NCBI GenBank assembly: GCA_051362555.1
Contig: CM120648.1
Span: 7,002,587 to 7,066,586, forward strand
DNA length: 64,000 nucleotides
Direction: 5' to 3'
DNA from: Lingula anatina
Lineage: Eukaryota; Animalia; Brachiopoda
Of this stretch, positions 25,599 through 57,000 are shown piece by piece. The translations under genes and the position numbers were made by a program. The notes under the pieces are model-generated. The model was not told the DNA's origin. It did not search any database and saw only the letters and a list, made by a program, of their open reading frames with translations. How positions within the stretch are numbered: the first letter of the stretch is position 1; each line of letters opens with the position of its first letter.

Positions 25599-25772
25599 GT
25601 GAATTAAATTGGAATTTCTGTTTTAACGGTAAGATGAAAGATGTAATGGCAATTTTAGTACAGGTTTTATTATTCATAAAATTTTAACGGGTTAATATAT
25701 TTTGTCCTCTTTTTTGTGCTCTCGTCCTGGCTTTTCACAGTAATTTTCATTTGAATATTTATTTTCTACCAG

Positions 25773-26441
25773 ATGTCTCTTATCGCCTCGAAATTGCTGG
25801 CGCAGCTGATGATACTTGGCATCGTCGCTCTACAAACACGGCCAGCCGCGTCTGCGGTTTTCTTACCGTTTCAAGGTTTCCCGTTTTTTGGACCATTTGG
25901 GAACAACTTTGCTCAGCTCATCTCGCAACTCTTTTCTCCTGCAACCAACGCAGGGCAACTTTTTGGTGGACAGACGCAGGGAAACGCTCTGCAACAGCTT
26001 GCCTCGCTCTTCCAACCAACCTCAGGTGGACAGCAGGGAACGCAGGGAAACGCTCTGCAACAGCTGGCTTTGCTCTTCCAACCAACCTCAGGTGGACAGC
26101 AGGGAACACAGGCAAACGCTCTGCAACAGCTTATTGCTTCGCTCTTCCAGGGAGCCGCAGGTGGACAGCAGGGAACGCAGGGAAACGCTCTGCAACAGCT
26201 GGCCTCGCTCTTCCAACCAATCTCAGGTGGACAACAGGGAACGCAGGGAAACGTTCTGCAACAGCTGGCCTCGCTCTTCCAACCAACCTCAGGTGGACAA
26301 CTGGGAACGGCCACCAACAGCATTCAATCCTTTTTCCTCACCTTGATCCGGCTAGCCGGCCAGTTCTGCCCGCAAAACCGTACATTGCCAATTTGCGTAC
26401 TGTTGTGTCAAAACTTCCCGTTCTTGACTTTCTGTACATGA
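25773..26441 (+). CDS. Secreted-type Gln/Gly-rich tandem-repeat protein, 222 aa, unknown family
   Basis: Hydrophobic signal-peptide-like N-terminus, five 22-23-aa repeats QGNALQQLASLFQPTSGGQQGT, and a C-terminal 4-Cys segment. ATG follows a splice acceptor directly; AATAAA at ~26710. Confidence 0.75.
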   Translation: MSLIASKLLAQLMILGIVALQTRPAASAVFLPFQGFPFFGPFGNNFAQLISQLFSPATNAGQLFGGQTQGNALQQLASLFQPTSGGQQGTQGNALQQLALLFQPTSGGQQGTQANALQQLIASLFQGAAGGQQGTQGNALQQLASLFQPISGGQQGTQGNVLQQLASLFQPTSGGQLGTATNSIQSFFLTLIRLAGQFCPQNRTLPICVLLCQNFPFLTFCT

Positions 26442-27096
26442 GGGCGGTGACATTTTTTATACCCTCTACCAGGGCCGCAGAGATGATCTGATCGCTATAT
26501 ATTCACAGAGAATGCTAAGGTTTTTCCTCTGCAAATTTCTGTACTGTCCATTTTGAAAAAAAAAAAAGTAATTAGTGACGTCATCACCCAGCTGGGTTTG
26601 TAGAAAAAAGACAAACTGTTAGAATCCTGTTATAGGCCTGATGTTAAATAGAACTTAATCTCATTAATAACAGATTAACTTTTGAAAATGTTGAGGGTTA
26701 AAAATTGAAAATAAATTTTCGTCGCACAAATTGAAATTATGATGTTGAATTAAATTTTTGTCACTCGTTTGAAAAAATTAAAATTTCGAGATTTTTTTAT
26801 TATAAAGTCAATTAATATAAATACGACTTTGGTTTGAAGCTGACGAACTGATTTTATTTTGTAGTGTGATTGTGATCTGGACGGCTAACTAGCTAAGCTA
26901 GAAGCCCAACCGTGTCGGTTGATAGGCCTACTAAAAAGCCTTAAATCGGAAGGGACGTAGCTCGCACTCGGCTTGGTCGGCTCGACATTTATCCATTGCT
27001 ATATATTTACCTGACAGTGTTTAAAATGGAAAATAAGGGGTTACAATTGGAAACAATCAAGGGTTCATTGGCCCGAAGGTTCTATATAGCGACTAA

Positions 27097-27298: not shown

Positions 27299-27681
27299 TA
27301 ATTCGGACAAATGAACCTTCGGACTATTGCTACGGCCCGAACCCGCCAATGGGGGTCAGGTCAGCTTTGTATTTGAGGCCTGTCATTCCTAAATAATCCT
27401 GGATACTGGATGCTTTAACAGTATGTCCCCATTGTCCGACAAGATCCCGTGTGACGTGATGGAGAGCTGGACCAGTCCCCATTAATTTGCACAGGTGAGC
27501 CTCGTCATATATTTTGGTCACTTACAGGCTAACCCTAACCTGTATAATTAAATATGGAGGGTTGAATCTTTGTTATGCGAACCCTCAGTTTCGTCACACC
27601 GACCCTATCTGGATCTTGTGTTTTTCGTGAAGAAGCTCCAAGCCCTGATGTGACCACTACCTCGTACGGAGATAAACATAT

Positions 27682-27928
27682 TGTTGTGTTCGTGCATTTT
27701 CCTACCTTCACCCGGTGTGCTCTCCCTGCGCGGAGAGCGCGCAATTATGGTAAGTACTGCGCACACCAGGTGGAGAGTCCAACTTCCCTGCCTGATCCCG
27801 GTGAGTACAACTCAACCACAGCTACCGTGCAGACGTGTACGGTACAGCCGACGAAAATAATCAGAATTGAGACACAATACACAGTGATCTACAATCTCAC
27901 TCCGTAAGTAGAACCAGTGAATACTTTA
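27682..27928 (+). repeat. 5' LTR
   Basis: TGTTGTG...ACTTTA. No difference from the 3' LTR found by eye; the incidental ORF translations across both copies are identical. Confidence 0.95.
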
Positions 27929-28531
27929 TTGGCGACAAGGCATTCGTAACTTGTAATTTTGCGGGCCTAAAGCTTAGTTTTCGCTGCGATCTAGCTGAAA
28001 GTAGATTGCGCGGGAAATTCCTTTGTCTAACATCCTTTTGAATAATTGGGTGGAGCGGCGGTCAAAATTGTAGTTTCAATTTTGGATCATAAAGGTTACC
28101 GCTTCAGGAGACACTGGTATTTGTTGCGTATCTACTGTATTTTCAGTGCTTACGTGTGTGAATTGTGATATAAAGGAGACGTTGGTCTCATTCCCCTGTG
28201 TGTTGTTATCAAAGCTGAATTTTTCCCAAGACTGAGGTGCACACGTAATATTTTAGTTTCTTTGTTTCTTTAGTTTATTTGAAAGAATAAAATATTGACT
28301 TCAGTGTTGTTGTTGATTATTCTTTTGTATTTTAGATAGGATTCTGAACAGAATTTCTGTCTAAATTCAACTTATTGCGTTGTGTGCCGAAGTCTTCTTT
28401 CCCCGAATTTGAATTAACTGTACGTTTTTGGATTCTATTTATAGTGAATTTCGCTATAAGCTTGGTAGTGTATTGTGCTTTGATAGGTGAAATTATTTTG
28501 AATCAATTTAATTTTCGCTTACAAATGTACA

Positions 28532-30574
28532 ATGGCGAGTGCATCAAGGTTGCCAATCAATCGTGCGACTTACGATGAGCTCGTTACGCTGCCGGGTATA
28601 GGTCCTAAACGTGCAGAAAGGATAATATACGCTAGAGAGCAAGGGATCCCCGTGACCAGATCCAACATTTTGAAAAATTGTGGATCCAATACCGGATCAA
28701 ATAAAAGCAAATATTTCTCTTTTGGGGGTACTCACAGTAGTGAATTAGGATCTGAAGTCAACATAGGTGACCTAGACCCTAGCGTATTATCCACTCAAAA
28801 AACTCATTACACAACTTCTAAAGTGACTTCCTACATTCAGCATGAAGGAAGAGCGGCTGCTAAGAGATATAGGGCGGAATTTGAAAAAATTCTCAAACTG
28901 GGTGAGAAAATTCAACACCAAGAACAAATTTCTCGCAGTAAAAATATAAAAAACGCTGCTAATTATTCACCATCAACGTATTCTAAATTAAAATCTTCTT
29001 CAAAATCCCATTTTCACTCAGCTATTGACCCAAAATCTTTCGCATCGCAGCCAGCTACTTTAGCCTCTGAATACGACATTTTTGCTCTGCCTTTTGAGAG
29101 GCTGCGTGCCAATAACAAAGATAAAAAAGTAACATCTTCTGTGCATGCAAAGTCTCCAGGCCGCGTCATGAACCCTGATACTGTTACTTCCTTGCCGAAT
29201 GGTAAAGACAGTAGTCGGCACTTTGCTCCGTCTGTCCATAAGGGTGATGTGAATTGTGATCTGTATCAGTTTCATGTTCCTAAACCCGGACGGCGGCAAC
29301 GACATGTTGAGCAAAATTTTGCCGATACAGTTCAACAAAATCATGAATACCGGTCTAGTTCAATAGGAAAACATTATACGCGACCCAGAATCTCGTCTCC
29401 CGTTTTCTGTGACGAACCACTAATTTATGAAAGGGATAACAGTGAAAAAGAATACTTTCGGCTACCCAAACCAGAAAAAGTAGGTCCAAAAAGTAAAAAG
29501 GACAGAGTAGACCCCAGTGATTTACCTAAACAATTATCATTTGACGGAAACAGTGACGACTGGGAGTCTTTCAGAAAAAGATATGAAAGTTATCGCCAGA
29601 TAAAAGAGTGGTCAGAAAACGAGTGTCTGGACTACCTTCTGTGGTGTCTTGAAGGCGAGGCTTTGGCACTGTATAATAGCCATCTCAGAGCAAATAAAAA
29701 TGTGTCGTACACATCTATAATGAAAGAAATGGACTTAGTGTTCGGGATTAAAAAACATCCCGATTCGGCTCGCCTGGCATTTCATACTGCCATTCAATCG
29801 CAAAACGAAACGCTAAACCAATGGCTGTGCCGCGTTTTGTTATTGGTCAGAGATGCTTATCCTGATAAATCGGAGTCTTTTAGGACAAAAGAAACAATAT
29901 CAAAATTTTGTCAAGACTGTATTGATCAGGATGCTGGGCGTTATACTAGTTTAAAGCATCCAGCAAGCATCAGCGACGCAATAACACATATGGTGGACTA
30001 TCAACATGTTTGTAAACCCACGAATAGTCATAAACAAACGAGAAAAATTCGTGAAAAAATTCAAATATGTTCTCTCAATCTTACAGCTAGAGAAAATCAA
30101 CAATCTCCATCTGAAAATGTTGAAAAACTAGTTGAGTCCATCATAGAGAAACGCGTCAGCCAGCAGCCAAAATTGAGCACAATTCAATTTAATTCAATGG
30201 CTGACTTGAAAAAAACGGTTGAACATTTGGTCAGGAAGTCCACACCTAAAACATCAAGTGTGTGTTTCTTCTGTAAAAGAAAAGACCATTTTAAAAGAAA
30301 TTGCCAGAAATATAAAGAGTTCTTAAAACGAAAAAATACTGAAAAAGAACTCGAAAAACAAGAGCGAGCTGATAACGCTGAGTCATTTAAACTTAAGGTT
30401 CGAGCGTCGAGTACATGTTCAAAAACACCGTCTCAAATGCATGGCACTAAAAAACCTCACCTAGTAGAACACTCATTGCAGCAAAATCAACGTAGGGGCG
30501 TAGAGTGGGATTCTGATCCTAGTATAGGTAAAAAAGCTGGGCCTTTAAGAAAGTTTTCGTGGTCTCGGGTGTAG
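28532..30574 (+). CDS. gag: Gag-like protein, 680 aa: N-terminal ComEA-like helix-hairpin-helix, capsid-like domain, CCHC zinc knuckle
   Basis: PINRATYDELVTLPGIGPKRAERII (HhH, LPGIG hairpin). FDGNSDDWESF..W..LEGEAL..QSQNETLNQW (retrotransposon Gag pattern). CFFCKRKDHFKRNC (CX2CX4HX4C). Confidence 0.9.
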   Translation: MASASRLPINRATYDELVTLPGIGPKRAERIIYAREQGIPVTRSNILKNCGSNTGSNKSKYFSFGGTHSSELGSEVNIGDLDPSVLSTQKTHYTTSKVTSYIQHEGRAAAKRYRAEFEKILKLGEKIQHQEQISRSKNIKNAANYSPSTYSKLKSSSKSHFHSAIDPKSFASQPATLASEYDIFALPFERLRANNKDKKVTSSVHAKSPGRVMNPDTVTSLPNGKDSSRHFAPSVHKGDVNCDLYQFHVPKPGRRQRHVEQNFADTVQQNHEYRSSSIGKHYTRPRISSPVFCDEPLIYERDNSEKEYFRLPKPEKVGPKSKKDRVDPSDLPKQLSFDGNSDDWESFRKRYESYRQIKEWSENECLDYLLWCLEGEALALYNSHLRANKNVSYTSIMKEMDLVFGIKKHPDSARLAFHTAIQSQNETLNQWLCRVLLLVRDAYPDKSESFRTKETISKFCQDCIDQDAGRYTSLKHPASISDAITHMVDYQHVCKPTNSHKQTRKIREKIQICSLNLTARENQQSPSENVEKLVESIIEKRVSQQPKLSTIQFNSMADLKKTVEHLVRKSTPKTSSVCFFCKRKDHFKRNCQKYKEFLKRKNTEKELEKQERADNAESFKLKVRASSTCSKTPSQMHGTKKPHLVEHSLQQNQRRGVEWDSDPSIGKKAGPLRKFSWSRV

Positions 30575-32010
30575 ATCAATGGAAAAGTGGACTTGGCTGC
30601 GCAGATTTCTGTAATGTCAGGAAGAGTGCATTGCGCGCATTAAGGTTAGCCACCAGTTTTTAGTTATATTGACTTACTATCTCTTGCTGCAGGGAATTGG
30701 AAATTTAGAAATACAGGTTTGCGACAAAATTTAGTGGTGAGATTAACTCTTGTACATGTAGCACCAATGACTGTTGAAAATTGAATGCATATGCTCAGTG
30801 CAATTTGGGTATTCTGGAAATTGACGGAAAAATGATATAAAAAGAAAACAGATTCACAGATAAAACAGCACCAGTAAGTGTAGCGAAAAGAAAAGGACAG
30901 TGGTATCCCCAAAATCGGAACATAATTCCATGCGAAATCAATAAACAGACTGAAAGATAGTCATGGAAAGAAATAAAGAGTAAAAAGGGGTCACTGATTC
31001 AGAGAATGGTGCTGTCCGAAAATTCCGATCAATAAAGAAAACTTCGTGTGGTAAAGTCATGTGGTAGCTACAGTAGCAAATGACATTTTGGAAACCTCTA
31101 AATTGGATGGGTATTAGCTTAGGGGGGTGGATTATAAAGTTAAAAAAAAAATCTGTGCCTGCATTATCAGTTACAAAGCTGATGAGACAACATGTACCGA
31201 TGTACCGGTGGGAACACCTGAAATTATTCGTAAAATCAGCTGTTTCTAGAACCGGTATCGAATCTTAAAATACGCTTGTGGGATAAAACATACTAGTGGA
31301 GGTTTTCATTCACCCTCCTATAACTGGTAACATCCCTAGAACAAGTGTACACCCGAACAAGACTTAACTTGTGGGATTAAATTCTGCAGGGGTTTCAAGT
31401 GTTAATTCCCCTAATTTCGAGAATATCCCTAGAACAAGTAACCGATTGAAAAGGACTAAATGTCACAGACTCTGAAGGTGGGTGGAAGCACTAAGGGCCC
31501 TTCAAGTGCCCCATTCACTGGAAGACGTTTGTAAAACTAAAAATTAACACAAAACTACCGGTAGTATAACATCTTTCAAGACTCCAAACATCGGGAGTCC
31601 AAACTTAAATAAAACCGCTGGTGACGTTCACTTTGGGCTAGACTCTTCGGGTTGCGTGTCTCTAGTAAAACGGGAAATCCCTGAACATCTGGAAGTGATG
31701 TTTAAAGTATCTAAAGGGAATAGTGTAGAATCAAATTTAGAAGGGGTGTTTTCTAAATTGAAAGATGTTTTTAATAGAGACAATTTTGATCTTGGTCGGT
31801 CTTAAGTCACTCAACGTGGAAATGAAGCCGGGAATGCCGAATCCCTTAAATCGCGTATGCGGTGGATGCTTGCGTGTGACATGCAGAAAGCATAGGGGGC
31901 ATTGTTAACGGAATGTTAACAACCGGATTCATGCAAGGCTGACAAGAGTCTCAGTCTGTGTGGATATTAGCACCAGTGTTTAATAATAAAACGTGACGTC
32001 ACGGTGAAAA
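30575..32010 (+). pseudogene. Decayed pol remnants (protease motif and start of RT only)
   Basis: VDLAAQISVMS at ~30588 resembles the D(T/S)GA protease site. KDVFNRDNFDLGRS*VTQR..AESLKSRMR (~31760-31860) and QESQSVW..APV..IIKRD (~31940-32000) resemble the Gypsy pre-RT/RT N-terminus. Many stops and frameshifts; no RT core, RNase H or integrase seen. Confidence 0.7.
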
Positions 32011-32060
32011 TTTTCCAATAGGGAAAATTAAATATATTGCTAGCAATATCCTTGAAGAAT

Positions 32061-32546
32061 TAGACTATCACTTTGTGATGTAGTTTATTTTTGTGTTTAA
32101 GAAAAATGGCTACAGTCTATTGAGATCAATGGACTATAACTGTTATGTAGCTTATTTCTGTGTTAACACATGACTACAGTCCATAAGACTATCACTCTGT
32201 GATGTAGTTTATTTTGTGTTAATAAATCGCTACAGTCTATTGTCATTAATGGACTATAACTGTTATGTAGCTTAATTTTGTGTTAACACGTGACTACAGT
32301 CTAATTTGATGAAATTTTTGAAAAACCGGGATCTTATTTTAGCATTCCATTTTTCTTTTCATTTATTTATGAGAATTTTTGGGACGGACTATCACTATAT
32401 TTTTGGTGATGTGACTGGCTGGTGAATGAACAGCCTATCACAGTCTGTTCTACTGTTTATTTATTTTTTGTATTTTTTTTTTTTTTCGGCGGACTATCAC
32501 CTCGGTGATGTTGTTAGCACTAACAGCTAATGACAGTCTGTACGAA
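32061..32546 (+). other. Array of six predicted three-way-junction RNA motifs in the 3' region of the retroelement
   Basis: Units at 32061-32119, 32129-32184, 32186-32238, 32250-32303, 32381-32451 and 32485-32546. All follow GACU-AU(C/A)AC-loop-GU(G/U)AU-GU..stem..AC-AGUC, with compensatory changes and G-U pairs. Confidence 0.75.
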
Positions 32547-32654
32547 TATTTCAACTGGAATCCACTTTATTTTATTTATCGAAAGGAATTTTGAGTTTGT
32601 ACATGGACAAACATGTATTTATAAGTAGCTCCTTTCAAATAAAAGTGGGGGGAA

Positions 32655-32901
32655 TGTTGTGTTCGTGCATTTTCCTACCTTCACCCGGTGTGCTCTCCCT
32701 GCGCGGAGAGCGCGCAATTATGGTAAGTACTGCGCACACCAGGTGGAGAGTCCAACTTCCCTGCCTGATCCCGGTGAGTACAACTCAACCACAGCTACCG
32801 TGCAGACGTGTACGGTACAGCCGACGAAAATAATCAGAATTGAGACACAATACACAGTGATCTACAATCTCACTCCGTAAGTAGAACCAGTGAATACTTT
32901 A
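32655..32901 (+). repeat. 3' LTR
   Basis: Direct repeat of 27682-27928, preceded by the PPT and followed by the TSD. Confidence 0.95.
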
Positions 32902-32921
32902 ATATACATATCTCAGGGCAA

Positions 32922-35900
32922 ATGGCGGAAGTTACGAAGCGCAAGAAACTTAGCTTGAAACAGGCAAAAGCAAAGAAGAATTCTTCAGCAGTTTTAACTA
33001 CAGGCTCCGACGATCAACAAGAGATCAAAAGGCAGAAGTTGGACACAGCTGTAAAAAGTGTTCCAAGGTACGCTTCGCTGAACTTAATTGGAGACTGTAC
33101 ATCCCACCTCTCCAGGGTCTTGAACTACCCCACTCACTTCTTTAATTTAATTTTAGAGCATTCATTCCCTTAGCATTCAGCGTTAATTCATTCTTTTAAG
33201 TTTTAGACGGATTTGGTCGAAAACAGGCAGTCAGAAGCGGGCGGCCAAACGCAGTTCCCTATTATTTAACCCTCTGGGGCGCAATTACGATTTATTTGAA
33301 CTGCCTCAATTTTCTGCCTTGGCTTAGATATCAGATGTCCAAAATCCGAGACAAATATATCAAACCGCCCGCTACACTCCAGTGAAGGTGACTTAACATA
33401 ATCATCCTCTGACAAATCTTGTTTCATTGATAGCAGTGCACTAGGAAATCCCATATTTGCATTAAATCCTCCTTAATAATTGTGTATATTAGTCTTAAAC
33501 ATTTAAAAAAATAAATAAAATATAGATCTATATTTCAGGTAAATTTGTACAAACATTTTTTAGTATGTGAATAAGTTCAATCATAATTTCCCCCCATCAA
33601 GCGACAGTGATTCAGTCTCAGAAGAGGTCAGTCTCTGTCCAGGCTTGGTCAGTGTCCGAAATTTCCTGAGGACTCACAGGTGGCCACAGTCCAGTCCTGG
33701 TCAACAGGCCTTCCCAGATAGCAAGCATACGTTGGGCCAACGTAGGGGAATCGTTGGTTTGTTGGCACATAGTTGGCGTTGGTAGTAATACGTTGGCCCA
33801 ACGTTGGCCCAACCACATCATAATATGCACAACATAACTGCAATATGCTCACGTTGGCCCAACGTTGGGCCAACGTGTGCATATTTGTTGCATACGTTGG
33901 CCTAACGTTGGGCCAACGTATCCAATTAACAACTCAATAGAAATGAATAATGTTTCTGTTATAATAAAAATGTTTCTGTTCACAACTGAGAATCACATGT
34001 GCTTATCTATTGATCAGTAACATATAGTTTTTAGGATTAAATTTTTTTTTTATTAAGAGTTTGTCAAATTCCTTGGGCTAAAAAACAGTGTTCTACTTTT
34101 ATTTGTCTTCCAAGCTATATACTCTCATATATATATATTTTTCATTTTGTCTTTTTTTCTGAATGGATATAGTATATAGTACATAGACTTCACCTATAAA
34201 AAAATTACTGAGTGAACAGATTTATATTTTTAAATAATGCTGTGAAACATATTTATTATTATTGCTATTATTATTATTGTTATTGAAATCAGACAAATGA
34301 TTGAAATCTTATTATAATGTACAATTGCTCAATATATAAATTTTAAACTTTATAGTTAGCATCAATTGACTTTTGATTAAAGTACACTGGTAACTTTCAC
34401 TGGACCAGATTCATTACAAGCCAGGTGTTTATCTTAACTGTCAGTTTGATATAAACAGTTTGCCTACTGCCTGCTCAAACAGGTCAAACAACTATACATA
34501 GCACAGTCTTAAGCGCGCTGACCGTTGAGCCAATTCAAAAATCTAAGCCAGAAGGTCAGAAATGTTCTAAGGAAGAGGCAAGAATTACGGCTGAAAGCAT
34601 TGGTTTCTGGATATAGAAAGAAGACATCTTTTTGGAAATTAGAAAATGAAGAGATAAAGAGACAGGATAAGAAGTGAGCATGTACTGGTAAGTGAATTTT
34701 TAATTGTGTATTTTCCCATTATTTACTGATGCACCAGGATCCATACAGCCTTGAAAAGTGTTCAAATTTAGTCCAGCACTTTGGACTAGTTTAAATGTAA
34801 CTAGTTTAATGGCTCTAGTTTAAATGTAACTTTGAAAAGTACTTGAAAATGCTATTAGGCTTGAAAAAGGTTTGCATTTCAGCATTTTGTCTTTGTAAAA
34901 ATATTATTTAAAACTTTGTAGTTTATTGAGATGAATACAGACAATAATTCACAGATGGGGGTAATATCTTTTAATACATCATTACTTGTACTTTTATTTT
35001 CAACTTTTCATCATCAGACAATGTGTTACAAAGACAAAGTTTAAATGAAATGAGTCATTTTTCCTTTGGTATGTACACTTTAATATAACTGTATTAATGT
35101 ATAACTTGCCCTCATTAGTTAAAATCATTGAAAATGATTTGATTTAGAGCCTTAAAAGTCCTTGGAAGCCAATTGTTCTTATGTGTCTGTATGAATCCTG
35201 GCCAGTAAATTCTGTGATAGAGTTGTTGGAATGATTAAATGATGTGGAATTTAGTGGTACATTACAGTTGTCTAAAAACTGAATTCATGGTCAAGTGTAC
35301 ACGTAAGAACTAATTTAAATAAATCACTATAAATTACTGCACACAAGACACACACTTTTAAAGTTAAGACATTGGCTTTTGCCTAACTTAGAAAAGGTGG
35401 GGAGATTATCATATAATACACACCTACTAGTACTAGTTTGTATATGAAATATGGGGGAAGAGGTACAGTCATGTTATGTACCATACCAATTCTAGCATTA
35501 TATTTCAAGTGTTTTTAATATTTAAATTTGTAGGTGCAGCACACTCTTCTGTGACTGTTCAGAAAAAGATGTTGAAGATACACCTAACTAATCGTGCTTT
35601 GCCAAAGATCATGCAGGTGCAGGACAGGAAAGAGAGAAAAAACACAAGATTTAACTCATATGACCACTGATTTGATTTTTAAAGAGACAATGTCTGAGAT
35701 TTTGCCTGACGGAAGAGACTGTGATTTTATAGACTTGACATATAACTTATGAAAGTTCCTATGAAAAGCATCTTACCTGACATTAACAAGGGTTTCAGGT
35801 TTAAAATTTAATTTAATGAAAATGTTTTTAAAAATTGAAATGGGGCAAAAAAAGACTTTACTAGTAGAAAAATGCCTTGACTCCAGGAATAAGGTGAAAA

Positions 35901-38891
35901 GTCATAGGACTGTTAAAATTTTTTTGATGTGAATCATGTAACAATTGATATAAGACACACTTATTAATGTTTAAATTTAATATTATAATATCTTATAAAA
36001 ATTTTCTTTGTTGTCTTTTTGTATTATATTTCAATTCACATATCATTATTTAGTTGGTGTAATGTATTTGTTTTATGTAATGTTATGAATTAATTAAACA
36101 GTTCAAAATATATCACTAATCTTTTTGTTTCAACTACAATTATTAATTGACAATTTTCCAGGTGTAGTGTAAATGATCACAGGCAGATCAAGTCCTCTGA
36201 ATGATTCATCCCTTAGAAACCTTGCCAATTTTTCAGCCATATCTTGCAGTTTGCAGATTTCAGATGCTCAAGATATTTCATCAGGACATTGATCTGCCTG
36301 TGCATCAGATGTGTAATTACAGTGCCCTACTACCTATGTGATTCAAAAAAAAAAAAAGATTTTGCCTTTAGCTCAATGTTGGGTTACTGTAAATCACTGT
36401 GCCCCTGGTTTTAGGTTGGGTCATAATTTGTGCAAATTGCAGATAACTTGGTGACCAGTTGGCCTACCATTGGGCCAACGCGGATACATTGTTGGTTTGA
36501 GGTTGGGTAATTGTTGGACTGATGTTGGTTATTAGTAGAACCAACGTAATTGCACTGTTGGTTACAGGTTGGGTAATTGTTGGACCAATGTTGGTTATTA
36601 GTTGGCCTAATGTAGGGCCAACGCAGTTTGGTTGGGTAATCGTTGGACTGATGTTGGTTATTAGTAGGACCAACGTAAATGCACTGTTGGTTACAGGTTG
36701 GGTAATTGTTGGACCAATGTTGGTTATTAGTTGGCCCAATGTAGGGCCAACGCAGTTTGGTTGGGAATACGTTGGCAATGCGTTGGCATTAAAAAGACGT
36801 TCAGCCAACCGTTGGCCAAAGTGAGCACTTAGATGGAAACCCAACGTTGGGCCAACGTTGCATGGTCAACCAAGGCAACGTTGGGCCAACGTTGGCCCAA
36901 CGTATGCATGCTATCTGGGTTACCAGCATGGGTAGGTCTTGGCTTCTATACATTACATATATATATTTGTTTGAACTTGTTCCGAGTTTAATTAGTTACT
37001 TTGTACATTAATTGACTGCCATTTGTAATAGGCATCTAATATGGTCTTCCACTTTTATCATTTTGGCAAGTCAACAAACCAGAATGTGTGTGTGTGTGTT
37101 GGGGGGGGGGTAGTGGCAAAATGCCCAGTGCAATTAAAAAAAATAAAAATTTTGATTCAAATGGGCATCAAAGGTCATCAGTTTTTACTATTTAACTTGT
37201 AATCTCTGAAGGGTGGAGGGGGGGTCTGAGAAAAGTCAACGCTTTGCAGAAGTGAAAATGGATGACTCTTAAAGGGATAACAACTCTTCATTTTGGCCAA
37301 AAAAATGAATTTTTCTGTGGTTAAGGACAATTTTTTATTTTGAAATATGGATATCATACGCATAGTTGTTATCCCTTTAAGATGGAGTATGTCAGAGTTG
37401 TGCAAATATATCCGAACCTACAAGCATCACTGACATGACTCGGAGAGTCAAAAGCCAAGAATGAAAAGAAATGAAATTCATGAGATGTGGTACAACACTT
37501 GCACAGTGCACAAACTTCAAAATATTCTGTCCACAATGAGACACCCACAGTACATTGTTCTTTTGTATGTGCACACGAGCATGCATGCACATACATGCTA
37601 ATTGGGTTTGTCTCGCTATATACCATCCACTTTCAAAGACGTGTTTGATATAATTTGTCAAAATTTCAATTTCATTTATTTATTTATCTATGTAGTATTA
37701 TTACCTCTGCCAAGGAGGTTATGTTTTCATCCCTGTTTGTCTGTCATCAACATAACTCAAAAAGTTATCCATGGACCGATTTTGATGAAATTTTCAGGAA
37801 CTGTCAGAAGTGGGCCAAGGAACAGATGATTAGTTGTTGGTGGTGATCCGGATCAGTAACTAATCAATAATCAATAATAATCAAAAATTGCTGTCTTGGC
37901 GGAGGTCTGCACTCTCAGAGTGCTTCTCTATAGTAGTCATTTTATATATTTTCTCCTTGCAGACACAGGTCCAAAATGAAGAGGACAAATCACTGAATGG
38001 AAATCAAATACAGAAAGACACATTTTCACATAAAGTAAGAAAAGAAGATATTTTGAATAATTGGAAGCCATTGCCAAAGGCTTGCATGTCATGTCTTTCT
38101 AGACAGAGATTATCTCACTCAGAATTTACTGCAGCTCACTCTGGGCCTGGTGAAACTTATCAGCAATTAGGAGGTAAAAACTTAAGATTAGAACAAAAGG
38201 AGACTTTAAAGAAAAAAGAGAGGGACAATGAACATAAAGTGCAATACCCTAATGTTAGGGAATCGTTCCTTGTGCATCCAAGAGTAGGAAAGTTTGAACA
38301 GAAAGAGACAACCTCTCAAGTTGTAGATGAAGTTTCTGGACTCAAGGAGACAAACTCTGAACATTCAAAATTTACCTCTAGTTTAAGGGAATCAAGCTCC
38401 TCTCTGAGTGAAGCAAACTGTGCACTCGTGGCTACAATCTCCCCACCGAGGAGTACAAGTTCTTCACAAAAACTAAAGTCTTCAGGAAGAGAAAACCAGC
38501 CATTTGACCAAAACAAGGAATGGCAGGATGCAAAGAAAGCGAGGCCATTGGATGCTTGTCCTCTTTGCCAGATGAAGTTTGAAACCAGGTGAAGCATTGC
38601 TTTAAAATTCTTATTGAGGCTTTAAATCTGAAACAGGTAAATTAAGGTGATGTATGTTTAGGCATGTTTATATTTACACTACAGAGGGGTAGACATACCT
38701 TTATCTTTTTATGAAACAGTATAAACTGAAAACTTTTCCAAGATGCTCCTAAATGCCAATTATATTTGTTGGTTGCAGGAAGACAGAAGGACGTCTCTAA
38801 ATATCAATTTTATTTTAGTTGGTCGCAGATGGACATAGATGGACACATAGCAGCCTGCCTGGCCTCCTCAGAAGATGATGTCCAGTGGTGA
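32922..38891 (+). CDS. FAAP20: FAAP20-like protein with C-terminal UBZ zinc finger; this allele is interrupted by a transposon in exon 2
   Basis: Exons 32922-33067, 33602-33712 + 36922-36931 (rejoined), 37963-38588 and 38819-38891 total 966 nt (321 aa) with consistent phases. The C-terminus CPLCQMKFETSWSQMDIDGHIAACLASSEDDVQW* matches the FAAP20 UBZ pattern ending in Trp. Orthology beyond the UBZ is not demonstrated. Confidence 0.7.
33713..36919. mobile_element. Non-autonomous CACTA/EnSpm-like DNA transposon, 3207 bp
   Basis: 31-bp TIR CCCAGATAGCA(A/T)GCATACGTTGGGCCAACGT with one mismatch, and a 2-bp TT duplication. Arrays of GTTGGGCCAAC subterminal repeats at both ends; AT-rich interior with no transposase ORF. 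Confidence 0.9.
37699..37930 (+). mobile_element. Helentron-associated (HINE-like) short element
   Basis: Subterminal inverted repeat ACCTCTGCCAAG / CTTGGCGGAGGT followed by a 3' hairpin GCACTCTCAGAGTGC; AGGAGGTTATGTTTT 5' motif. Confidence 0.65.
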
Positions 38892-54800: not shown

Positions 54801-57000
54801 CTGCCAAGAAAAAATTGAGTGTCTAATTTTAATTGAAAACAAATGGGTCTAAATATCCACTCACATTTCTTATCGTAATGTTGTATGAGAACTCACTTGC
54901 AAGCTGTTTATGTAGACGGTGGTTGCAATATTAATGTTAAATGGTACAAGTACATGGGTAACAAAGGCTCACAGTATTGACATAGTTAACCTTTAACCAT
55001 ACCTTTTACCCAGTGTTTCCAATATCTATCTAGTTAACCACAAATCAATCCTTTTACACAATGTTCCCAATATTTCTCTAGTTAACCACCAAACCTTTTA
55101 AACAGTGTTCCCAATATTTACCTTCTTTTCCTTGCTTGTTCTTCTTCTTCTTTGGCTGCTGTAGACCAAACATGGCTGCAGCAGCTTCATCGCCATAGAT
55201 CATAGCATAGTACTGCTGCCACTGACTGGACTGGTAGAAATACGTGGCTGGGTCCATTCCTAGCCTGGTCCAGTCTCCACCAGCCTAAAAAAAATTTTCA
55301 AATAAAATTTTTCAAATTTATGTCAAGTTTATTTAAAAAACATAGATGGTATTAAAGAGACTTCAATTATCAAAGGGGGAAAAAACAGGCAGTATAAACT
55401 ATGTGTAATATAAATCATAAATTATGAGGTGTGTGCAGTTTATAAAATAAAAATCTGAATAGCTTGCCATATATGATTATTTAAACCACATCTTTTAAGC
55501 TACTAGTAGCTACAAACTAACAATCAGAATTAACCACAGGACCCCCCAGTGATGTGTAGTATCCTGACCTGGTGGTAGATGTTCCTCATGTGGCCCATCA
55601 TGGTCTCCATTTTCTGGAGATTACTGCTCATGTCTCCATTGCCAGTCATCATAGAATTCATCTGGTTCACCATGTCATGGATGTCCATGTTGCTGTAGTC
55701 TTGACCCATCATTTGCTGCTGACCATCTCCATAACCTGACCCCATCCCTCCCTGACCAGGACCCATGGGTCCTGGACCCATTCCACCAGGCCTGGGCCCC
55801 ATTCCACCACCAGGTCCAGGACCCATTCCACCACCAGGTCCAGGACCCATTCCTCCACCAGGTCCCAATCCACCAGGCCTGGGCCCCATTCCACCACCAG
55901 GTCCGGGTCCCATTCCTCCAGGTCCAGGGCCCATTCCACCAGGTCCGGGTCCCATTCCGCCACCAGGTCCCATTCCTCCAGGTCCAGGGCCCATTCCACC
56001 AGGTCCGGGTCCCATTCCACCAGGTCCCATTCCTCCAGGTCCAGGACCCATTCCACCTGGCCCAGGACCCATTCCTCCAGGTCCAGGGCCCATTCCACCA
56101 GGTCCGGGTCCCATTCCGCCACCAGGTCCAGGACCCATTCCTCCAGGTCCAGGGCCCATTCCTCCAGGTCCAGGGCCCATTCCACCAGGTCCAGGGCCCA
56201 TTCCACCAGGTCCGGGGCCCATTCCACCAGGTCCAGGACCCATTCCACCAGGTCCAGGACCCATTCCTCCTGGTCCGGGTCCCATTCCTCCTGGTTCAGG
56301 TCCCATTCCTCCAGGCCCAGGACCCATTCCTCCTGGTCCAGGTCCCATTCCTCCAGGCCCAGGACCCATTCCTCCTGGTCCAGGTCCCATTCCTCCAGGT
56401 CTGGGACCCATTCCTCCATGTCCAGTGCCCATGTCATCCATTCTATCATCAAACCCTGGCGGTCTCAGCCCAAAATCATTCCCTCTGTTAAAATTATTCC
56501 CCATGAATTCTCCTCTTGGTCCCATGTTATCTATCAAATAAAGGGTTTAGCAATATTTAATTTGCATTCAGATCAGTGATCCACAGACTAACTGGTCCAT
56601 TGATCATACATGCTGCATATCTTCTAATGGTCTCCCTACCTACCACAGGTGTCAGGCCTGCAGGGACCTAATAGTCTAACAGATTAAATCTTGGTTTCAA
56701 AGTTAAGTTGCTTGGCCCCATTGCTTGTGACTGTGGTATAAATGGTACGTTAGTAATATGTAGAATCCGGTGTGACTCATATATGATAATAATCTGGTTT
56801 GTTTTGTTTATATGTTACGATGTTAATCAGTTTGTGTTATGTGTATTGTATACTATTACTTCTGTTATTTTGTGCAACGTATTCTGTCACTCCCTTGTGC
56901 TGTTAATGTCCAATGAGACTACTGTATGCTAGTTTGTCTGTTGCATATATGTTGTAATATGTGTTTAGTGTGAAAATGTATGTTTTGTTTTGTGATGTCA

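Follow-up and report, generated by a model that had tools for sequence, protein, structure and literature searches.

A repeated core with predicted three-helix RNA junctions ahead of the polypurine tract in a gag-only LTR retrotransposon from Lingula anatina

Anatomy of the LTR Retrotransposon

The window, that is, the whole stretch of 64,000 nucleotides of Lingula anatina DNA analysed here, contains an LTR retrotransposon of 5,220 bp (~5.2 kb). The expected features of such an element were found, namely two LTRs of 247 nt, a target-site duplication, and sites resembling a primer-binding site (PBS) and a polypurine tract (PPT). The LTRs are 100% identical, which points to a recent insertion. 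The features are as follows:

27678..27681, + strand: left target-site duplication (ATAT, 4 bp), the same four bases outside both LTRs
27682..27928, + strand: 5' LTR, 247 nt, TG...TA ends, 100% identity with the 3' LTR
27930..27940, + strand: primer-binding-site-like TGG stretch directly after the 5' LTR, from the sequence
28532..30574, + strand: intact gag ORF, from Pfam and the sequence
28556-28675, + strand: N-terminal helix-hairpin-helix (HhH) of Gag, Pfam HHH_3, E 5e-8, above cut-off
29597-29851, + strand: PNMA-type capsid region of Gag, Pfam PNMA, E 7e-8, above cut-off
30263-30304, + strand: CCHC knuckle of Gag, from the sequence
30575..32060, + strand: closed-frame region, broken in all frames, probable pol remnant (protease-like start, pre-RT linker)
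32638..32643, + strand: AATAAA, the sole copy within 32541-32928, outside the LTR
32641..32654, + strand: PPT, adjoining the 3' LTR, from the sequence
32655..32901, + strand: 3' LTR, 247 nt, from identity with the 5' LTR
32902..32905, + strand: right target-site duplication (ATAT), from the sequence

The LTR ends are TG...TA instead of TG...CA, and the target duplication is the 4-bp ATAT. No tRNA genes were found in the 64-kb window. The AATAAA near the 3' end (32638-32643) sits just before the PPT and outside the LTR. Were it to serve as the polyadenylation signal, transcripts would stop a few bases inside the 3' LTR; this would imply that U3 is nearly absent and that the promoter is internal, and the 5' LTR would then cause no premature polyadenylation.

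The Gag of the element has a capsid region and a CCHC knuckle (aa 588-601), as expected of LTR retrotransposons. A full HMMER scan returned 1834 Gag relatives at E<=1e-3, with none returned by the word-indexed protein searches or by two viral scans. Of 20 relatives that were looked up, the eight with a species name come from Lingula, Dreissena, Mytilus, Mya, and Nucella. These Gag relatives suggest a Ty3/Gypsy-type placement of the element. The HhH stretch is matched by 26 of 157 stored proteins, one of them a non-Gag protein, and its nearest neighbour among solved structures is ComEA; the literature search on HhH combined with gag returned no description.

The intact gag between identical LTRs, followed by a region closed in all frames, agrees with the gag-only retroelement described in an earlier reading of this DNA made from the letters alone (the sequence-only reading). 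The three frames of the closed region carry 37, 23, and 38 stops, with a longest open stretch of 85 aa. That reading had also placed a decayed pol here, which the position fits; however, Pfam gave no match in the 1.5 kb 3' of gag, and the weak colinear similarities of this segment (22-26 bits) equal those of a reversed-sequence control (24-25 bits). Its start resembles a protease motif and its end resembles the linker before the RT, and from its position the region is likely a pol remnant. Non-autonomous elements reduced to LTRs and gag are reportedly known as TR-GAG, a term from plant work; the element described here likewise has LTRs and gag only, but it belongs to an animal and carries an HhH-Gag.

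The contigs of three DNA runs cover the 3' region described below at summed depths of hundreds to thousands (not an estimate of copy number), so the element belongs to a repeated family.

The Six-Unit Array

Between the closed region 3' of gag and the PPT, the element contains six matches to a 22-nt core, GACT-ATMAC-x-GTKAT-GT-x-AC-AGTC, at 32063-32117, 32132-32181, 32187-32237, 32252-32301, 32387-32445, and 32492-32538, all on the + strand and with none elsewhere in the 64 kb. The array lies 100-580 nt ahead of the PPT, its end being ~100 nt upstream of it. The core pattern had no matches in 100 shuffles; as it was derived from these units, this shows only that the repetition is non-compositional. 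The units, as modelled with an outer helix P1 and two arms P2 and P3, and two folds that span neighbouring units are:

32061..32119, + strand: junction unit 1 (type A), P(junction) 0.74 alone
32129..32184, + strand: junction unit 2 (type B; P2 weak, 4 bp), P(junction) 0.002
32186..32238, + strand: junction unit 3 (type A), P(junction) 0.70 alone
32250..32303, + strand: junction unit 4 (type B; P2 weak, 4 bp), P(junction) 0.000
32380..32452, + strand: junction unit 5, robust, with P1 of 11, P2 of 7, and P3 of 4+5 bp; z -5.9, P 0.74-0.77 in context
32489..32541, + strand: junction unit 6, robust, with P1 of 7, P2 of 5, and P3 of 9 bp; z -3.5, P 0.74-0.75 in 520-nt context
32114..32135, + strand: 9-bp linker hairpin from the unit 1 P1 3' strand to the unit 2 P1 5' strand (permuted P1), from folding
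32172..32209, + strand: circularly permuted junction formed by the unit 2 AC-AGUC strand and the unit 3 arms; this 38-mer has the junction as its minimum free energy (MFE) fold, with P 0.17-0.40 in context

When folded alone, units 1-6 have junction probabilities of 0.74, 0.002, 0.70, 0.000, 0.75, and 0.75, and the MFE fold is the three-helix junction in four of the six (units 1, 3, 5, and 6, with z of -2.9, -1.9, -5.9, and -3.5). The contiguous pairs in P1/P2/P3 are, from unit 1 to unit 6, 6/5/6, 7/4/4, 5/5/5, 6/4/4, 11/7/4, and 7/5/9. The strongest folding of the element, among 43 windows, was also found in this part (z -5.6 and -3.9 at 32362-32600). The sequence-only reading had described six perfect three-way junctions. 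The core is indeed present six times and the P1 and P3 stems that it quoted are in the sequence; units 5 and 6 fold robustly and units 1 and 3 do so alone only, but the junction is not predicted in units 2 and 4 (P<0.01). In these two units, the five-pair AUAAC/GUUAU P2 that had been drawn is mistaken, since the loop would have 1 nt and P2 can hold at most four A-U pairs.

Units 1-4 form a tandem repeat of period 120 with 89% matches (AB-AB), as had been noted before, and they probably descend from one unit through two local duplications (unit to AB to ABAB). In the interior of P3, A and B share 70-80% identity with each other and only 37-52% with units 5 and 6, which keep the core and the fold and little else, also as previously read. 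Because A and B are related, the six units represent only three independent lineages. The spacers are U-rich (50% and 76% U). In model R1, the six training units score 58-72 bits, and a scan of the window with this model gave no seventh unit, the next best score elsewhere being 11.2 bits; when the window was scanned for perfect junctions in general, AT repeats swamped the output.

Folding of the Array in Context

In a 520-nt context, units 5 and 6 hold the junction at ~0.75, the P1 of unit 6 dropping to 0.38 in a 1.2-kb context. Units 1-4, in contrast, have ~0 probability as separate junctions in the 520 nt, and strand-swapped junctions appear instead, so that the description of six separate folds holds for units 5 and 6 only. 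The unit 1 junction has a probability of 0.90 in a prefix ending at 32122 and of 0.02 once unit 2 is present, and the arms of unit 1 combine with the last strand of unit 4 at P 0.50 in the 520-nt context, where the last strand of unit 2 joins the arms of unit 3 at P 0.40. Each AB pair favours a nested fold, with an outer junction (0.31 and 0.72) and a 9-bp hairpin over the A-B linker. The swapped folds of units 1-4 use the same three junction strands in another connectivity, nested or circularly permuted. Units 5 and 6 are therefore predicted to be autonomous, and units 1-4 to build the junction mainly through strand swapping.

Search for the Motif in Other Sequences

No family of Rfam 15 reached its gathering threshold with the array (best score 22.9 bits against a threshold of 60), in line with the sequence-only reading, which did not recognise it as a known motif. 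The scans of the collections gave strict core matches at 2 viral, 43 metagenome, and 22 prokaryote loci, a permuted pattern at 4, and a looser pattern at 120 or more, 80 of which were retrieved; none of the loci had two strict core matches. The contexts of 16 + 6 matching loci were coding sequence, a minisatellite (L038), or AT-rich repeats. The metagenome, prokaryote, and viral scans gave no second element family with the motif, the matches being single and context-free.

Some candidates were considered individually and rejected. Loci L012, L019, L025, L027, L036, and L044 scored at most 31 bits with model R1, but their P3 ends after two core pairs; they are AT-rich repeat loci whose GTGAC-rich stretches match the core without P3. 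Upstream, L012 has what we take to be a piece of an integrase-like ORF. On an animal-like contig, L035:3882-3937 folds into the full junction at P 0.73, but it is single, without an LTR or gag nearby, and was taken as a chance match.

The literature search, which did not extend to Repbase, Dfam, subscription journals, or supplements, returned no description of the motif, and none of an export or packaging cis signal for LTR retrotransposons of marine invertebrates. The array would be an undescribed motif of a known kind, found so far in one family.

Variants and Transcripts of the Family

Forty of the 44 rows of DNA-contig variants were available, and 32454-32570 (unit 6) lies outside their coverage. 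The core is hit by 7 of the 40 rows, against 11 (28%) expected from its length, all of them in units 2 and 4 and none in units 1, 3, and 5; the divergent contigs concentrate on unit 4. Common variants break peripheral pairs (unit 3 P1 pair 5, unit 5 P2 pair 7, and unit 5 P1 pair 5), and another one preserves a pair of the unit 5 P1. The RNA reads show two unit 6 variants, both within the P2 loop.

Four RNA runs, of which 6-25% was sampled in each case, gave 45, 38, 147, and 95 reads on the element, and since most of these are 90-99% alike to it, their source would be copies of the family. Nearly all of the depth in runs X15 and X16 has the first mate on the - strand, array bins included, which by the usual mate-orientation rule normally corresponds to low-level sense RNA of the family; the reads of X18 run in both directions and those of X12 are mixed.

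The 5' LTR has donor-like GTRAGT sites at 27750, 27801, and 27904, with copies in the 3' LTR at 32723, 32774, and 32877, and acceptor-like sites lie ahead of gag at 28273 and 28335. In X16 and X18, RNA reads stop matching the element at 27901-27905, where a GTAAGT donor lies, and continue as several unrelated sequences; this looks as if LTR copies start transcripts that are spliced into host exons. The joints listed for the RNA reads, at their low depth, include no spliced one inside the element. Five X18 reads share the PPT and LTR and have a different sequence upstream of 32628; these possibly belong to a related element with another 3' region, maybe an autonomous partner, and such a relative may lack a need for the 3' region described here.

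Evidence for a Probably Selected RNA Structure

An empirical null was built from 57 distinct core matches outside the element, obtained in the collection scans. Among them, 24 have P1>=5, 30 have P2>=4, 5 have P3>=4, and only 1 has all three, compared with six of six units of the element; likewise, a junction probability of at least 0.5 was found in 4/6 units and in 1/57 null matches.

In the alignment of the six units, 84% of the cells are paired. The three-helix fold proposed by the sequence-only reading was recovered by RNAalifold unprompted, with 6 of 18 pairs altered on both sides, the double-sided changes including P1 pair 6, P2 pair 3, and P3 pairs 3 and 4. The covariation that had been claimed stands in part: its score of 0.279 was reached by none of 500 shuffles and is above all six slid controls, but the count of pairs changed on both sides was reached by 38 of 500 shuffles and is not above them, and there are only three lineages. 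Related rows can beat shuffles without structure, and the kinship of the units inflates these measures. At P3 pairs 3 and 4, each of the three lineages has letters of its own, and the pairing is kept in all; two P3 changes at the chance rate of 5/57 give ~0.01 by our own arithmetic, a figure that drops further when the long arms in units 5 and 6 are taken into account.

The G-U wobbles that extend the helices number 12 on the sense strand and 3 on the antisense strand, in a region that is G+U-rich. The sense specificity attributed to these pairs is incomplete: as the core is all Watson-Crick, units 1, 3, and 5 form the junction on the antisense strand too (P 0.63-0.72, with weaker energies), and only unit 6 loses it (0.02). 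These pairs also bear on a role of the structure as single-stranded DNA during reverse transcription, or of the core as the site of a DNA-binding protein. The Watson-Crick core would suit such a role, DNA parameters give P 0.43-0.76 for units 1, 3, and 5 on both strands, and the Gag carries an HhH of a DNA-binding type. However, the strand that becomes single-stranded here in the established model is the minus-strand cDNA, in which the G-U pairs become mismatches and the junction of unit 6 drops to P 0.08, and a duplex site would need no compensated P3 arms; a DNA role is regarded as very unlikely.

Repeats that are not under selection would give part of the same picture, if a hairpin-rich stretch had been duplicated locally and the stems were by-products of inverted-repeat mutation. 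Units 1-4 do derive from one unit by two duplications, nested folds come automatically with tandem hairpins, units 2 and 4 look decayed, and the core variants are only slightly under their expectation; tandem repeats, moreover, are said to arise from retrotransposons. Against this, the 22 core letters are complete in units 5 and 6, whose arms are unrelated and yet paired. Of the 43 contiguous pairs in these two units, 8 are G-U, a kind of pair not created by palindrome-correcting mutation. Together with the 1/57 on the empirical null, this makes an unselected origin improbable.

It is instead considered quite probable that this gag-only LTR element carries, on its sense strand, an RNA structure that acts in cis and is under selection. 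The reading draws on the invariant junction strands (6/6) with saturated flanks, the double-sided changes, the G-U bias, the contrast of 6/6 against 1/57, the low-level sense transcripts, and the lack of an Rfam match. The selected signal of the sequence-only reading is in this way supported, its six independent perfect junctions being overstated.

Comparison with Known RNA Elements

The MPMV constitutive transport element (CTE) is described as lying directly upstream of the PPT and, like the SERV-K/MER11 CTE, it is a structured 3' non-coding cis element adjoining the PPT (PMC11379458), as the array would be. The CTE is reported to bind Nxf1 via two internal loops (PMC4338338). Whereas conservation in the CTE concerns these internal loops, in the array it concerns the three paired junction strands, the loops being free, and the six-unit alignment has no conserved internal loop. 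AAGACA, which we take to be the CTE loop word, is absent from the array. By analogy, the likeness to the CTE would be one of position only.

The MusD MTE and the IAP RTE are 3' structured RNA elements of mouse LTR retrotransposons that use host export machinery, the MTE being presented as one 412-nt domain that requires a kissing loop as well as a pseudoknot (PMC5767303). The array differs in having a 50-70-nt unit six times and no conserved loop pairing; the P2 loops match at most 3 nt within the 40 nt downstream, and these matches differ between units. The Rev response element (RRE) of HIV-1 has helices around a junction which load several protein copies, according to the same source (PMC5767303). 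The likeness to the RRE lies in the helices around a junction, but the array consists of repeated minimal three-way junctions with no known adaptor. The HIV-1 RRE lies in env as one 4-5-way junction, and it combines an internal-loop site with an adaptor of viral origin.

Xrn1-resistant RNAs (xrRNA) have a three-way junction that is closed by a pseudoknot from a loop to downstream sequence; the array has no conserved loop, no consistent downstream complement, and no Rfam match to them. The ENE triple-helix element has an internal loop that is U-rich on both sides, a feature absent here, where U runs of at least 5 are found in the spacers, one P2 loop, and one P3 arm, again with no Rfam match.

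The hammerheads of retrozymes reportedly are small three-helix junctions repeated in a non-autonomous retroelement and tolerant of circular permutation, traits in which the array resembles them. Its invariant junction bases and tolerated permutation would accordingly recall a small ribozyme of unrecognised type, with junction pairs that open into a catalytic core, and the strain term suggests fraying. The hammerhead core, however, consists of unpaired CUGANGA and GAAA; the array has no conserved unpaired bases, CTGANGA is absent on either strand of 32040-32660, and no Rfam ribozyme was matched. Cleavage ahead of the PPT would also destroy the template, and the reads, at low depth, show no pile-up of ends. 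A ribozyme is for these reasons the least credible of the readings considered here.

Proposed Function of the Array

Here it is tentatively proposed that the repeated core in the 3' untranslated part of the element RNA folds into three-helix junctions that would serve as multiple binding sites for a protein that enables the RNA of the element to exit the nucleus unspliced and to last. This RNA would start with strong, apparently used splice donors; as donors in use at the RNA start imply that unspliced exit from the nucleus needs help, a signal for export or stabilisation would be required by the full-length RNA. The junction bases are kept by identity while the arm lengths and loops drift, which suggests a site read by the protein at the branch point, and local duplication may have multiplied the copies, raising occupancy. 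By analogy with the CTE position, a multicopy export or stability signal read by a host protein is given somewhat less than an even chance. Cer1 of C. elegans, a Gypsy-type LTR element, is described as having a dedicated protein/export route for its RNA (PMC10309623).

The junctions could, alternatively, bind the element's own Gag, through the HhH or the CCHC, as a packaging or assembly signal. Such a role would account for the retention of both gag and the array in an element that is non-autonomous, with gag intact while the downstream region is closed in all frames. The HhH is a family trait (the 26 of 157 proteins above) with ComEA as its nearest structure; however, the ComEA-type HhH is a non-specific DNA binder. 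The yeast elements point both ways, since packaging of Ty3 depends on UTRs or POL, whereas the Ty1 packaging signals are placed in the 5' 580 nt, and Ty1 RNA is described as reaching retrosomes without need of the 3' UTR (PMC4974528). Binding by Gag is seen as possible, though rather unlikely.

A host RNA-binding protein might also read the array in the cytoplasm, as a germline localisation zipcode or a translational enhancer of gag. The same structural evidence as for export applies, as does the 3' position with U-rich spacers, and localisation signals of retrotransposon RNA exist in insects. Nothing in the data is specific to transport or translation, and a cytoplasmic signal is rated, if anything, slightly below the unselected repeats.

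A broader proposal is that the array represents a new minimal RNA class, a three-way junction with no unpaired bases that is recognised through the sequence at the branch point whatever the strand connectivity, arrayed across the HhH-Gag LTR retrotransposons of molluscs and brachiopods and bound by the HhH of Gag. This is speculative and doubtful as a whole. If true, an invertebrate Gypsy-type lineage would have its first defined 3' signal for Gag binding or export, and a ComEA-like HhH its first RNA-junction ligand; cis signals for export and packaging have been mapped in a handful of vertebrate retroviruses, in LTR elements of the mouse, and in Ty of yeast. With 50 nt, the unit is short enough for probing, pull-down, and reporter assays; its core is fixed, its arms are free, and both weak and strong copies occur naturally. 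A 22-pair model of the unit can be applied directly to mollusc genomes. Fully paired natural three-way RNA junctions are expected to be strained, and a conserved strained junction, either a protein-stabilised fold or a junction with rearranging closing pairs, would be of interest for structural biology.

Other Features of the Window

Inverted 58-nt arms lie 3.1 kb apart at 33713-33924 and 36436-36919, with clusters of CCAACGTTGG palindromes as well as subterminal repeats of 66/129 nt, and the whole looks like a non-autonomous DNA transposon. At 25688-26491, a 66-nt coding-like repeat is present five times, with overlapping open frames. Finally, at 55530-56579, a 21-nt unit repeated 32 times is open in all six frames and would encode a Gly-Pro-rich repeat on the + strand.
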